A stretch of DNA of 64,000 nt from Anaeromyxobacteraceae bacterium (GCA_047602405.1 JASGHJ010000002.1:1184001-1248000), one strand, 5' to 3'. Positions 26,536-30,210 are shown, numbered from the stretch's first letter. The notes: generated by a model not told the origin, from the letters alone. Numbers and translations are program-made.

Positions 26536-27669
26536 ATGGACAGGACCGCGACGCCGATTCCCAGGCCCCGGCGCCGCCGCGATCACGTCGCGGCGCGCGT
26601 CGCGCTCGCGCTCCTCGTCTCGCTCCTCGCGAACGGCCTGCTCCTGTGGATCGCGGTCGTCACCGGCGCCTTCGACGTCGGCAAGCCCGTGAAGGTCTCG
26701 CAGGTCTCGCTCTCGCAGCTCTCCGCCTCCGACTGGGCGAAGAACCGGGGCGCCGCGGCGCCGCCGCCGGCCCCTCCGCCGCGGCTCGTGCCGGTCCCCG
26801 AGCCCACCCAGGACGGCGGCACGGTCGTGAAGCTCCCGCCCGGCGCCGACGGGAAGCCGCCGAAGGAGGCCCGCTTCCTCGCCGAGCGCGACCAGTCCGT
26901 CGAGCGGGAGACCGTCTCGCGCTACGCGACCGGCCACGACGGCCCCGTGCTCCCCGCGCCCCAGCTCGCCGGCAAGCCCGCCCCCCAGCCTCCGCCGAAG
27001 GGCGAGCAGCAGCCGGAGCGGAAGCCCGAGGACGCGAAGCCCCGGAAGGACGGCGCCAGGCCGCAACGCGAGCAGCTCGCGATGCTCGACCCCTCGCGCG
27101 AGGGGCTCGTGCCGCCGCCCGCCGAGGCGCGCCGACGCCAGGCCGGTGAGGCCGCTGGCGATCCGCGCAAGGCCTCCCCCGCGACGGAGCCCGACCTGAC
27201 CCCGCGCGCGCCCGGCCTCGGCAGCCTCGCGACCGGCGCGCCCAACGAGGACGGGATGGGGCAGGGGCTCGAGGAGGGCGACGTCACCGCCCTCAACACC
27301 CGCAAGTCCGAGGTCGCGAAGTACCTCAACTCGTTCGGCGACCGCATCGCGAGCTGGTGGCGCGGCCGCACCCGCGCCGCCATCGGCGAGCGCGATCCCG
27401 AGGCGCGGATCTTCTTCTACAAGGACCGCACGGCGGTGTTCCTGGTGCGGATCGAGTCGAGCGGGCAGCTCGCCGAGGTCCGGCTGCTGCAGTCGTCGAA
27501 CGTGGACTTCTTCGACCAGATCGCGCTCTCGGCCATCCGGCAGGCCGCGCCGTTCCCGCCGCCGCCCGCGAGCGTGCTCGACCGCACCGGCGAGTTCCGC
27601 TTCACGCAGGGTTTCACCGCGCAGGGCCCGCAGGCGCCGCGCGGCTGGGACTGGCGCCCGGGCCAGTAG
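26536..27669 (+). CDS. TonB/TolA-like energy transducer family protein
   Basis: N-terminal TM, Pro-rich linker, C-terminal VRIESSGQLAEVRLLQSSNVDFFDQIALSAIRQAAPFPPPP. Confidence 0.85.
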   Translation: MDRTATPIPRPRRRRDHVAARVALALLVSLLANGLLLWIAVVTGAFDVGKPVKVSQVSLSQLSASDWAKNRGAAAPPPAPPPRLVPVPEPTQDGGTVVKLPPGADGKPPKEARFLAERDQSVERETVSRYATGHDGPVLPAPQLAGKPAPQPPPKGEQQPERKPEDAKPRKDGARPQREQLAMLDPSREGLVPPPAEARRRQAGEAAGDPRKASPATEPDLTPRAPGLGSLATGAPNEDGMGQGLEEGDVTALNTRKSEVAKYLNSFGDRIASWWRGRTRAAIGERDPEARIFFYKDRTAVFLVRIESSGQLAEVRLLQSSNVDFFDQIALSAIRQAAPFPPPPASVLDRTGEFRFTQGFTAQGPQAPRGWDWRPGQ

Positions 27670-27781
27670 CCGGTCCCCCCCCCCCGCCGCTCGCGCACCG
27701 GCCGTGCGGCCCGCACCGCGGGTCGCCGGATCGCGCGCCGTCACCCCGCCGTGACACGGCGCGACTAGGATGCGCGGCATG

Positions 27782-29711
27782 GTGCGTCGTGGAAGCTGCA
27801 CCGATCCAGCCGGTGAGAGTCCGGTCCGGGTAATCGCCGGAGAGCCCGGAAGCAGGCACCAGCTTGTCCGGGAGACCGGGCATGCCGAGCGGTGCGTCGA
27901 AAGCCTCACGTACGGAGGAAGCGAAGCGGCGGGCCGCAACAAGGTGAACGCTTCAGCCTCGACAGATCCTCAGCCGAAAGGTGTTCGGGAGCGCCGAGCC
28001 GGTCATGCCACGGCGAAGGCGATGCACAGCGTCCTTGGTCCGGAACGGACGCTGGGGCTCCCCGGGGTAGGGGCGGCGGCACGTCGCGAAGGATCGGTGT
28101 GGAACACGAGAGACCCTCGCCGGCAGCCCGCGTCGGGCAGAGACCGAGCGCATAAGACGGGAGTCGAAAGCGCGAGGAGCCGGAAGGGAGTCCGAGGGGC
28201 CCGTAGTACCGGTGAGGCGCGGGATAACCGCGCGGAGGGAAGGGGCCCTGCTTTGGTCGCGTCGGCACTGGGGGTAAGCGCGAGGGCATGGCCGTGAGGC
28301 CCAACACCCCCATCGACAAAGTGCGAGAACTCCAGCGCCGGCTTTACGTGGCCGCCAAGCGGAGCAGCACGCGGCGCTTTCACGCATTGTACGACCGGAT
28401 CTGCAGGGGTGACGTCCTGCGGGAAGCGTGGAAGCGGGTGCGCAGCAACGGAGGCGCGGCAGGGGTGGACGGCGAGTCCATCCGGGCCATCGAGGAGAGC
28501 GGAGTCGAGGCGTTCCTCGAAGGGATCCAGGCCGATCTCCTGGCAGGCGAATACCGCCCCCTCCCGGTGAGGCGGCGGTACATCCCGAAGGCAGACGGAA
28601 AGCAGCGGCCGCTCGGGATCCCGACGGTGCGGGATCGCGTGGCGCAGATGGCTGCGAAGTTGGTGCTCGAGCCGATCTTCGAGGCCGACTTCCTGTCGTC
28701 GAGCTACGGGTTCCGGCCGAAGCGGAGCGCGACGCAGGCGCTGGAGGCCATCCGCGAGGCTGGCAACCAGGGTCACAACTTCGTGCTCGACGCCGACATC
28801 AAGGCGTACTTCGACAGCATCGACCAGCAGAAGCTGATGGCGATGGTGGCGGAGCGGATCTCGGACCGCAGGGTGCTGAAGCTCCTGCGGAAGTGGCTGG
28901 AGGCCGGGGTGATGGAGGAGGGCACGGTGAGAAACCCCGTGGCGGGAACGCCACAGGGTGGAGTGATCTCGCCGCTGCTCGCCAACGTCTACCTGCACGA
29001 GCTCGACCGGATCTGGGCGCAGAGGTGCAAGCACCTCGGCGTCCTGGTGCGGTACGCCGACGACTTCGTCGTGATGTGCGGGACGGAGTCGAAGGTGAAC
29101 GAGGCGAGGCGGCGCGTCGAGCTCATCATGGCGCGCCTCGGCCTGACGCTGCACCCGGAGAAGACGCGGATCGTCGATCTGAGGCGAGGAAAGGAAGGCT
29201 TCACCTTCCTCGGGTGCGTGAACCGGAAGCGGCGCAGCATCCAGCGGCGCCCCGACCGGCACTACATGCACCGCTGGCCCTCACCGAAGGCGATGACCCG
29301 CGTCCGCGAGCGCGTCCACGAGCTGACGGACGTGCGCAGGAGCGGGGCGAAGGACGTGAAGGAGGTCATCGCGTCCGTGAACCCCGTCATCCGGGGCTGG
29401 GCCAACTACTTCCGGACCGGAACAGCGGATTGGGAGTTCAACCGCGTCGACTGGTACGTGCACGAACGGATCACGCGCTGGCTCCATCGGCGCGGTGGTC
29501 AGCGGACTCGCTATCAGTACGAGGCTTGGCCCTTCGAACGTCTCTTCGAGCTTGGCCTGCACCGCTGCATGGGCCGCGTCCGCTACCCCGCGCAAGCTGC
29601 CGCGCGAAGACCATCGTTAAGCCGTGTGCGGGAAACCCGCACGCACGGTTTGAAAGGAGGCCCTGGAACCAGGCTGGCCTAACGGCCGGTACTGCGCCAG
29701 GATCGACCAAT
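27782..29711 (+). mobile_element. Group II intron (IIB-like, bacterial class E/F-like IEP) inserted at the mgsA start codon
   Basis: 5' GTGCG at 27782; GGTGAGAGTCC domain I motif; DIII-like GGAGTCCGAGGGG..GTAGTACC..GGAGGGAAGGGG; domain V AAGCCGTGTGCGGGAAACCCGCACGCACGGTTTG (about 29619-29652) with AGC triad; DVI ending ACCAAT at 29711. Boundaries are uncertain by 1 nt. Confidence 0.93.
28288..29682 (+). CDS. ltrA: Group II intron reverse transcriptase/maturase (no En domain)
   Basis: [58 protein letters not shown], domain [12 protein letters not shown]. Confidence 0.97.
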
Positions 29712-30210
29712 GCCGAACCGCCGCGTCCCGATGAAGCCCGTGAAGAACGTCGTCCTCATCGCCCACGACTCGAGGAAGCAGGATCTCCTGGAGTGGGTGA
29801 AGTACAACCAGCCCGTCCTCCGCGAGCACCGCCTCTTCGCCACCGGCACGACCGGAGGCCTCGTGCAGACCGCGACCGGCCTGCCGGTGACCCGCTTCAA
29901 GAGCGGCCCGCTCGGCGGCGACCAGCAGGTCGGCGCCAAGATCGCCGAGGGCGACCTCGACGTGCTCGTGTTCTTCTGGGATCCGCTCGAGCCGCAGCCC
30001 CACGATCCGGACGTGAAGGCGCTGCTCCGCATCGCGGTGCTCTACAACGTGCCGACCGCCTGCAACCGCGCCACCGCCGACTTCCTCGTGGCGTCGTCGC
30101 TCTTCCACGGCGCCTACGAGCGCCTCGTGGAGGACCACGAGGCGGCTCGCGAGGCGTGGCTGAAGGCGCAGGCGGCGGCGATCGCCGGGCCCGCGCCGGC
30201 CCGGCGCTAG
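29710..30210 (+). CDS. mgsA: Methylglyoxal synthase
   Basis: LIAHDSRK, ATGTTG, SGPLGGDQQVG, FFWDPLEPQPHDPDVKALLR, ACNRATAD. Confidence 0.97.
   Translation: MPNRRVPMKPVKNVVLIAHDSRKQDLLEWVKYNQPVLREHRLFATGTTGGLVQTATGLPVTRFKSGPLGGDQQVGAKIAEGDLDVLVFFWDPLEPQPHDPDVKALLRIAVLYNVPTACNRATADFLVASSLFHGAYERLVEDHEAAREAWLKAQAAAIAGPAPARR

Follow-up and report, generated by a model that had tools for sequence, protein, structure and literature searches.

Group II introns that likely home to the start codons of leaderless genes: the mgsA intron of an Anaeromyxobacteraceae bacterium and its lineage

Introduction

How does a mobile intron come to lie between the first and the second codon of a gene, what makes it choose such a place, and from which start codon would the interrupted gene be read? 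The question is raised by a 64,000-nucleotide (nt) stretch of DNA from an Anaeromyxobacteraceae bacterium (GCA_047602405.1 JASGHJ010000002.1:1184001-1248000), hereafter the window, in which a 1931-nt group II intron, GUGCG...CCAAUG, occupies positions 27782-29712 and separates codons 1 and 2 of mgsA; coordinates are those of the window and all features lie on the + strand. A first-pass annotation of the window had proposed that the element homes to initiation codons and rebuilds a translation start for its host gene. Comparison of the intron with its relatives at the sequence level supports the homing idea, and the picture is richer than the annotation suggested. The element is a mobile intron of a widespread lineage whose RNA pairs with the end of a -10-type box, with the start codon and with the base that follows; given these pairings, start codons of leaderless genes are its likely homing targets, a reading to which we assign a probability of about 0.75.

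The available text of a 2015 review distinguishes three target specificities of bacterial group II introns, namely homing sites, terminators and attC sites (PMC4424553). The sites described below fit none of the three readily, and the alternatives considered concern (i) the position of the splice junctions, (ii) the origin of the site preference, and (iii) the way in which the host gene is expressed from the intron-bearing locus.

The mgsA locus, its sister copies and the empty sites

The 5' flank of the intron comprises TAGGAT (27766-27771), a -10-like hexamer with a putative promoter role, followed by the 7-nt spacer gcgcggc and the start codon ATG (27779-27781), after which the intron begins at 27782 with GUGCG (27782-27786), in agreement with the GUGYG consensus of group II 5' ends. 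Every element position given in the first-pass annotation was recovered in the window sequence. The 3' exon, from codon 2 to the stop of mgsA, extends over 29713-30210, and the open reading frame (ORF) that starts at 29710 encodes methylglyoxal synthase (NF003559, 211.4 bits against a cut-off of 84; Pfam MGS also matches). Together with a LysR regulator and galT, mgsA is one of three host ORFs in which family support places the N-terminus at the junction. In 10 relative genomes the frame of the mgsA orthologue begins 6-8 codons before the Met that matches 29731, an internal Met missing in one of them; the relatives thus start upstream of 29731, and the upstream ATG is the real mgsA start.

The genome to which the window belongs (6.16 Mb, 74.1% G+C) carries eight copies of the intron. 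Seven are full length, with 2-6 substitutions relative to the window copy and, in one of them, an additional one-base insertion. The eighth, located before galT (L008/L009, G000:C1:1300399-1302089), has lost 240 nt of the reverse transcriptase gene and measures 1691 instead of 1931 nt with both ends intact; it is thus non-autonomous and could rely on the protein of the other copies. All eight share the ends GTGCG...CCAATG, with a start codon directly 5' of the intron (ATG in seven, GTG in one), an ORF of 148-501 amino acids in frame with the terminal ATG downstream, and, in seven of the eight, TAGGAT or TAGGCT as the target hexamer. At intron positions 1298 and 1650 the mgsA copy is the odd one out, reading C and T where all other copies read T and C.

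The closest relative genome, G010, harbours a single copy of the same intron (94% identical) and discloses three orthologous sites without it. Its mgsA reads ...cgactaggatgcgccgcATGCCGAACCGC, that is, TAGGAT-N7-ATG followed by CCGAAC, and the three empty sites are TAGGATgcgccgcATG|CCGAAC for mgsA, TAGGCTctcgccATG|CCGGAG for galT and TAGGATcccggcGTG|CCGCCT for the host gene of the GTG-targeted copy (L006). The intact mgsA expected on removal of the element is therefore seen directly in the intron-less orthologue, and eight copies together with three empty sites document mobility. Since the empty L006 site reads GTG, the target codon remains 5' of the intron, and the ATG at the 3' side is the intron's own; the unspliced L006 gene consequently has its GTG changed to ATG. 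The same comparison, the GTG-targeted copy included, bears out the earlier proposal that the terminal ATG belongs to the intron and starts the mgsA frame: it forms the last three intron bases (29710-29712), in frame with mgsA, and is present in all eight copies. The intron limits of 27782 and 29712 hence rest on the block common to the eight copies, on the empty sites of G010 and on the binding-site partners that adjoin at the junction, as described below.

Insertion sites across the lineage

In a search with the intron-encoded protein (IEP) as query, 80 loci were recovered that share 49-74% identity with it and come from many phyla; their intron ends were located by nhmmer and motif rules. 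Usable 5' junctions were obtained for 57 of them, the other 23 being contig ends or introns of another kind (terminator-type), and the eight copies of the window genome, the one copy of G010 and these 57 related introns make up a set of 66 sites. The codon directly 5' of the intron is ATG at 53 sites, GTG at 11, and TTG and ATT at one each. A TANNNT hexamer precedes it at 64 of the 66, with a spacer of 6 (44 sites), 7 (15) or 8 nt (5), and the two remaining sites read GACAAT and GAGGAT; as a control, such a box precedes only 111 of 10,144 RTG triplets (1.1%) in the flanks of the same loci. An independent set was assembled by scanning metagenome contigs for the hairpin of exon-binding site 1 (EBS1, see below) with the triplet CAC, and its 74 non-identical introns show TANNNT at spacers of 5-9 nt in 68 cases. 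Among these 66 + 74 sites no insertion at a non-start position was encountered, save those behind the 3' end of another intron. At the 3' side, an ORF of at least 100 codons follows in the frame of the terminal ATG at 40 of 47 sites, compared with 8 and 20 for the other two frames. The proposal of homing to initiation codons thus holds for all eight copies of the window genome and across the lineage, and tabulation of the homologues gives no sign of insertion sites unrelated to ATG.

With a spacer of 6 nt, transcription from a sigma-70-type promoter would usually begin at the A of the codon, as it does in leaderless genes. The arrangement TANNNT-N6-RTG is over-represented in the window genome, where 70% of its 338 occurrences are followed by an ORF of at least 150 codons, compared with 34-51% for spacers of 2-5 and 11-15 nt. 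The target genes accordingly look like leaderless genes rather than start codons in general. The first-pass annotation had taken TAGGAT as the -10 box of mgsA itself; the hexamer is indeed there, and that description is incomplete inasmuch as the box also forms part of the intron target. A host Shine-Dalgarno role for TAGGAT is ruled out, the hexamers of the lineage reading TACAAT, TATAAT, TAGAAT and the like.

Three side observations concern the same layout. First, TANNNT placed 6-10 nt before ATG or GTG is 2-4 times commoner in the window genome (G000) than other spacings, with about 65-70% of occurrences opening an ORF of at least 150 codons, which suggests several hundred gene starts of leaderless type. 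Second, AGGAGG lies 5-8 nt 5' of the mgsA start in 3 of the 10 relative genomes mentioned above, and mgsA and galT of more distant species of the genus (L014-L016, L259-L262) carry AGGAGG 5-8 nt before the ATG, whereas in the window genome and in G010 the ATG of the same two genes follows a -10-type hexamer at a distance of 6-7 nt, so that a single gene occurs in a leadered and in a leaderless-type form across the genus. Third, tandem copies occur at four metagenome loci, at the 3' ends of L135, L173 and L189 and in the 5' flank of L204, where ...CTACCA(A/G)TG is followed by the GTGCG or GTGTG of the next copy; lying directly behind the terminal triplet, they show that the intron's own end can act as a target site. 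In addition, the L100 intron (2789 nt, about 800 nt longer than the rest) contains a second match to the 5' region (nhmmer hits 1116 and 1455) and is possibly a nested insertion.

RNA-target pairing and the splice junctions

The pairing partners were sought by aligning the first 520 nt of 59 introns and testing the alignment columns for complementarity with positions of the flanks. The hairpin at 27998-28014, GCCG-GTCATGCCA-CGGC in the DNA, holds CATGCC (28004-28009), the complement of GGCATG (27776-27781), and had been put forward as an EBS1 containing an anti-AUG. The alignment confirms the loop, GCCG-GUCAUGCCA-CGGC in the RNA, and by covariation assigns EBS1 proper to CAUG (28004-28007), with the intron-binding site IBS1 being the last four bases of the 5' exon, C plus the start codon (27778-27781); the two outer positions of CATGCC, opposite exon positions -5 and -6, are without signal. 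The column of 28007 forms a pair with exon position -4 in 93% of the 59 introns, five pair types being represented, and in 67 of the 74 metagenome introns. The loop reads C-A-U-N throughout the alignment, except in three introns (that of G010, L097 and L098) with C-A-C, all of them behind GTG; conversely, the metagenome introns, picked for CAC, have GTG as the 5' codon in 72 of 74. The conserved CAU of EBS1 therefore switches to CAC at GTG codons, and EBS1 does not map to another loop. The empty L006 site, which reads GTG, and the same 72 of 74 also rule out a register in which the triplet would belong to the 5' end of the intron.

The second pairing involves EBS3, a G at 28070 (alignment column 398) facing C29713, the first base of the 3' exon and hence IBS3. 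Of 50 introns, 90% have a Watson-Crick pair between this column and the base that follows the terminal ATG, all four pair types being represented, as have 23 of 26 metagenome introns (shuffle mean 8.3; none of 2000 shuffles reaches this count). EBS1-IBS1 and EBS3-IBS3 thus flank the insertion point, as expected of a group II intron, and since IBS1 and IBS3 abut after the G, the splice junctions are placed at 27781|27782 and 29712|29713.

A different junction deserves consideration here, since, with the triplet duplicated, DNA cannot tell registers 0 to 2 apart. Were the splice sites to lie inside the start codon (AU|G), resembling the UA|G of the groEL stop-codon introns, the intron would start with G and end with AU in all members, including those in which UUGCG or UCGCG follows the codon; the 5' ends of the lineage do vary, with UUGCG, UCGCG or GCGCG in some members. 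The EBS3 column, however, covaries with the base after the terminal ATG (90% of 50; 23 of 26), exon position -4 and RUG pair with EBS1, and the two binding sites abut after the G, as at canonical splice junctions. The split-codon junction is rejected on the EBS3 covariation, and we regard it as highly improbable.

The third pairing connects the intron with the box. An EBS2-like element, GAUC at 27965-27968 with an invariant A at 27966, faces the 3' part of the TAGGAT hexamer, its IBS2-like partner being 27769-27771 by covariation; in the mgsA copy, AUCCU (27966-27970) can pair with AGGAU, which extends the partner to 27767-27771. With the sites aligned on the hexamer, column 281, the invariant A, stands opposite the invariant last T of the hexamer in 59 of 59 introns, column 282 pairs with the fifth hexamer base in 54, column 280 with the base after the hexamer in 46 and column 283 with the fourth base in 39; for each of the last three, none of 2000 shuffles reaches the count, and the metagenome introns give 58/68, 47/68 and 68/68 for the EBS2-like columns.

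The initial T-A of the hexamer, on the other hand, has no such partner: pairing of T-A with the intron is ruled out, the facing columns being mostly A and C, a point that weighs against target choice by RNA alone. Recognition or selection must therefore be assumed, and T-A is probably either a feature that the protein reads or one that selection for promoter function imposes. In the window genome, 3,788 sites fit a loose RNA-specified target and TA occupies hexamer positions 1-2 in only 35 of them (0.9%), against seven of the eight actual insertions, which implies that something beyond pairing picks real boxes, be it protein recognition or survival.

These figures are also what recommends a survivorship account, according to which the intron inserts at any pairing-compatible N-RTG-N and only those insertions persist that happen to lie behind leaderless promoters, where the reverse transcriptase is made and the host gene is spared; the frame that runs open from the host AUG (see below) would indeed make expression position-dependent. 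We nevertheless consider this account doubtful. In 59/59 and 68/68 introns the EBS2-like element has its invariant A opposite the invariant last T of the hexamer, which means that the RNA itself is built for the box; a retroelement that ended up inside genes in about 99% of its insertions would impose a heavy cost; and the near-complete lack of non-start insertions in both site sets is not what indiscriminate landing predicts. Homing guided by the box, the start codon and the following base remains the preferred reading.

The intron-encoded protein and the ribozyme class

The ORF in domain IV encodes an IEP of 464 amino acids (28288-29682) with reverse transcriptase (RT) and maturase (X) domains (Pfam RVT_1, 1.9e-37; GIIM, 4.3e-15), the YADD motif and a TIGR04416 score of 431.6 bits (cut-off 300); a Pfam domain search finds no endonuclease domain in it. 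The ribozyme is represented by (i) a domain I segment at 27807-27944, matching Rfam group-II-D1D4-4 (RF02003, 85.9 bits, gathering 49, E 1.8e-18), and (ii) a domain V hairpin with the AGC triad at 29619-29651, identified from an RF00029 alignment over 29617-29683, from the RNA fold and from conservation in the relatives.

The first-pass annotation had called the lineage class E/F-like, an assignment that the protein does not sustain. Its best solved relatives are RTs of IIC introns (7uim, 211.8 bits; 6ar1, 206.3 bits), followed by T.el4h (182.9) and LtrA (153.8), and the nearest loci outside the clade (49-54% identity) are terminator-type introns located behind hairpins and ending CUCUAC/G. 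In a FastTree phylogeny of the IEPs the start-codon introns fall into two clades with support, of 12 and 36 rows, next to a clade of 10 terminator-type rows, in a tree whose key fork between start-codon and terminator-type clades is unresolved and which contains many long branches from wrongly picked ORFs.

Like class C (IIC) introns such as GsI-IIC, B.h.I1 and O.i.I1, the mgsA-type lineage combines an RT/maturase without endonuclease with a very short IBS1 (4 nt), and takes a generic genomic signal rather than one gene as its target, hence the many dispersed copies. Class C introns, however, insert after intrinsic terminators or attC sites, whereas the sites here are TANNNT-N6-8-start codon, that is, a -10 box with a start codon; and they lack EBS2-IBS2, whereas a 4-nt EBS2-like pairing covaries in two data sets here. 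The AUG instead of AY at the terminus and an RT frame tied to the host start codon set the lineage further apart. Leon et al. reportedly described, in 2010, IIC-attC introns with internal outward-oriented promoters (PMC3001079), and in those, as here, the gene downstream would receive an expression signal from the intron; the promoter there lies inside the intron and drives integron cassettes, whereas the mgsA-type intron offers a start codon and at most a weak -10-like or Shine-Dalgarno-like motif at its 3' end.

Class E/F introns are compact, with a 5' splice site set by EBS1-IBS1 and an EBS2-IBS2 pairing that splicing can do without and whose presumed role is in retrohoming, according to the available part of Nagy et al. 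2013 (PMC3753933). As far as that description goes, a dispensable EBS2-IBS2 would fit an EBS2 partner that lies upstream of the transcript start, as proposed for the mgsA type; the nearest relatives of the mgsA-type IEP are nonetheless IIC-type, and class E/F enters this comparison by description only.

Start codons have been linked to group II introns before. A specialised IIB1 clade (Michel et al. 2007, as related in the accessible text of Gomes et al. 2025) occupies initiation and termination codons, exemplified by Avi.groEL and EcKTE56.groEL, in proteobacterial housekeeping genes, its introns of about 3.2 kb bearing a 300-700-nt insertion at the base of domain I (PMC12584367). The resemblance lies in the association with start or stop codons and in the re-creation of a working codon upon insertion (UAA to UAG there, AUG supplied here). 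The differences, as far as that text allows, are that a domain I insertion of this kind is missing here, the Rfam match starting 25 nt from the 5' end and 506 nt preceding the ORF, that the mgsA-type RT is IIC-like, and that the lineage has hosts in many phyla; for the IIB1 clade, neither a leaderless context nor -10 pairing is brought up in the available part of Gomes et al. 2025 (PMC12584367). Within the literature as accessed, the IIB1 clade of Michel et al. 2007 is the only case of start-codon-associated introns found in print, and nothing was found there on leaderless start codons as the sites of a lineage that lacks the endonuclease or is IIC-like, a point on which Michel et al. 2007 itself may bear.

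The intron's 3' end

Domain VI spans 29656-29708, with a base formed by G29656-C29708, G29657-C29707 and G29659-C29704, as derived from an RNAalifold consensus of 43 introns in which 8 of 12 pairs show compensatory changes and C-N-A-C-C contains an A that never varies and stays unpaired. This bulged A29706, the seventh base from the 3' end and flanked by G-C pairs, as is typical of domain VI, is at the usual place of a branch point and is our candidate for it. The stop codon of the IEP falls in the apical loop. A 3' extension beyond domain VI, as in B.c.I4, had been considered from a single-sequence fold with A29691 bulged, and was dropped after the 43-intron consensus; as domain VI runs to 29708 and leaves the tail AAUG, there is no extension, and the lineage has swapped the terminal AY for AUG.

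The segment CAGGAT (29698-29703), on the 3' strand of domain VI and 6 nt before the terminal ATG, contains AGGA (29699-29702), which lies 7 nt before the ATG, and the IEP stop TAA (29680-29682) lies 27 nt before the same ATG. The first-pass annotation had read AGGA as a Shine-Dalgarno element. In that reading the intron would home to initiation codons generally and, with AGGA starting mgsA on the unspliced RNA, would be harmless to its host. AGGA-N7-ATG does exist in the mgsA copy, the terminal ATG is lineage-wide, and 20 of 56 members have GGAG, GAGG, AGGA or AAGG at a distance of 5-17 nt upstream of the terminal ATG. The motif is, however, missing from the other 36, the entire CCCCUGACUACCAAUG subclade included; within the domain VI consensus the partners of A29699 and G29700 are U29664 and C29663; and the targets are restricted to codons 6-8 nt behind TANNNT, where a -10-type hexamer occupies the Shine-Dalgarno position upstream. 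As a property of the lineage, a Shine-Dalgarno role of AGGA does not stand, and the reading as a whole is possible rather than probable.

The same bases admit another interpretation. Many proteobacterial-type relatives end with TAGGAT-CTACCA-ATG, a -10-like box at leaderless spacing and in the same layout as the target sites, and the mgsA copy reads CAGGAT-CGACCA-ATG. The intron could thus carry an outward -10 box from which a leaderless host mRNA would start inside the intron, independently of splicing; seven of the eight target hexamers of the window genome are TAGGAT or TAGGCT, and the intron has CAGGAT at the same spacing; outward promoters are also reported for the IIC-attC introns mentioned above. 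The first base in the mgsA copy is however C, not T, the box is missing from the Actinomycetota-type subclade, the bases are also constrained as a strand of domain VI, and a promoter scan of 29600-29800 finds nothing, all of which makes an outward promoter rather unlikely. A further candidate role, in which the AGGAU of domain VI would mimic IBS2, was set aside after inspection by eye, as introns with an altered EBS2-like element keep the same stretch.

The last three bases of the intron form the terminal triplet, with CTACCA-ATG at the end of 47 of 50 CAU-type members. In relation to EBS1, CAU introns terminate in ATG (47), GTG (2) or ACG (1), and CAC introns in ATG (20), GTG (19) or CTG (1), so that the first base of the triplet follows EBS1 (Fisher p = 1.2e-6, relatedness ignored), both states occurring in both main subclades. 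It does not follow the 5' codon: CAU introns behind GTG keep ATG in seven of seven cases, as judged by eye. The terminal triplet may dock in EBS1 and there take the place of the very short 5' exon; alternatively, lineages specialised on GTG genes may do better by returning GTG.

Reading frames and proposed mechanism

From the host start codon a frame stays open through domains I-III for 172 codons (27779-28297), its stop TGA (28295-28297) overlapping the coding sequence that begins at the IEP ATG (28288). Across the lineage this host-start-codon frame is open for at least 350 nt in 53 of 62 members and free of stops to the end of the RT gene (fused) in 29, whereas neither of the other two frames reaches 350 nt in any of the 62 (median first stops at 49 and 8 nt). 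We infer that the RT is made by ribosomes starting on the host AUG, which would be leaderless initiation if the RNA begins there. The distance from the RT stop to the terminal AUG, 27 nt in the mgsA copy, is 100-122 nt in most members; coupling between RT and host gene is therefore not general.

The observations suggest the following course of events. Transcription of the target genes would be driven by the -10 box and begin at the A of the start codon, so that the pre-mRNA would start with AUG followed by the intron. Ribosomes would start at the 5'-terminal AUG, traverse domains I-III (172 codons here) and reach the RT gene, either by fusion or, in the mgsA copy, through the stop/start overlap (ATGGCCGTGA), and the intron would thereby borrow both promoter and start codon of the host for its RT. 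The RT/maturase would then aid excision, with branching at A29706, and the lariat would reverse-splice into single-stranded DNA at new TANNNT-N6-8-RTG sites, with priming that does without an endonuclease. Even if splicing fails to occur, the interrupted gene would have a start codon in the terminal AUG, in the mgsA copy perhaps helped by AGGA or by re-initiation 27 nt past the RT stop.

We lean slightly towards a broader view, in which the leaderless promoter with its start codon constitutes a fourth target choice of group II introns, domains I-III serve as a coding leader, and the terminal AUG or GUG is a spare codon that tracks EBS1 and may dock there.

Several points weigh against homing to leaderless start codons, besides the unpaired T-A. 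As for the promoter, a scan with a consensus of E. coli type finds none at 27600-27850; -35-like hexamers are not enriched at the sites (2/44 versus 31/416 controls) and the extended -10 motif TGn is enriched only mildly (10/64 versus 24/422). As for the ribozyme, the intron terminates in UG (...CCAAUG) instead of the usual AY of group II 3' ends, one entire subclade starts with U instead of G, and the full-length domain V/VI alignment to RF00029 scores 39.8 bits, 0.2 below the gathering threshold of 40. The host frame is shut early in 9 of 62 members, and the shuffle tests of the pairings take no account of how the introns are related, though each site represents an insertion of its own. Metatranscriptome contigs contain relatives about 92% identical, among them a 1927-nt contig from sediment run X1 that covers 27793-29712 and ends 4 nt past the intron 3' end; they show neither a transcript start nor a splice, and contigs of a multi-copy element end at its borders anyway. 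If transcripts began at the A of AUG, the 5' exon would measure just 3 nt, and to our knowledge no group II intron has been demonstrated to complete both splicing steps with so short an exon. Transcription without a leader, splicing and translation are all deduced here from sequence comparison.

The surroundings of the locus comprise a TonB-like gene (26536-27669) upstream of the mgsA box, and between the two lie a run of 11 C at about 27675-27685 and an imperfect inverted repeat, CCGTCAC...GTGACACGG, at about 27739-27760; no terminator-like site is called at 27600-27850, the inverted repeat and the C run included.

Implications

If true, the reading adds a target strategy to specific homing sites, terminators and attC sites, and describes a retroelement that would recognise a gene-expression signal by RNA pairing and then use the signal itself. 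The intron would also be a natural case of a ribozyme sequence that is kept open as a reading frame, and it raises the question of whether splicing proceeds with a 3-nt 5' exon or whether the host gene is left to the terminal AUG of the intron. For gene targeting by introns, a target as short and rule-like as N-N-T-N, gap, N-R-U-G-N may be of interest, and the insertion sites would provide a sequence-only marker of leaderless genes across many phyla.

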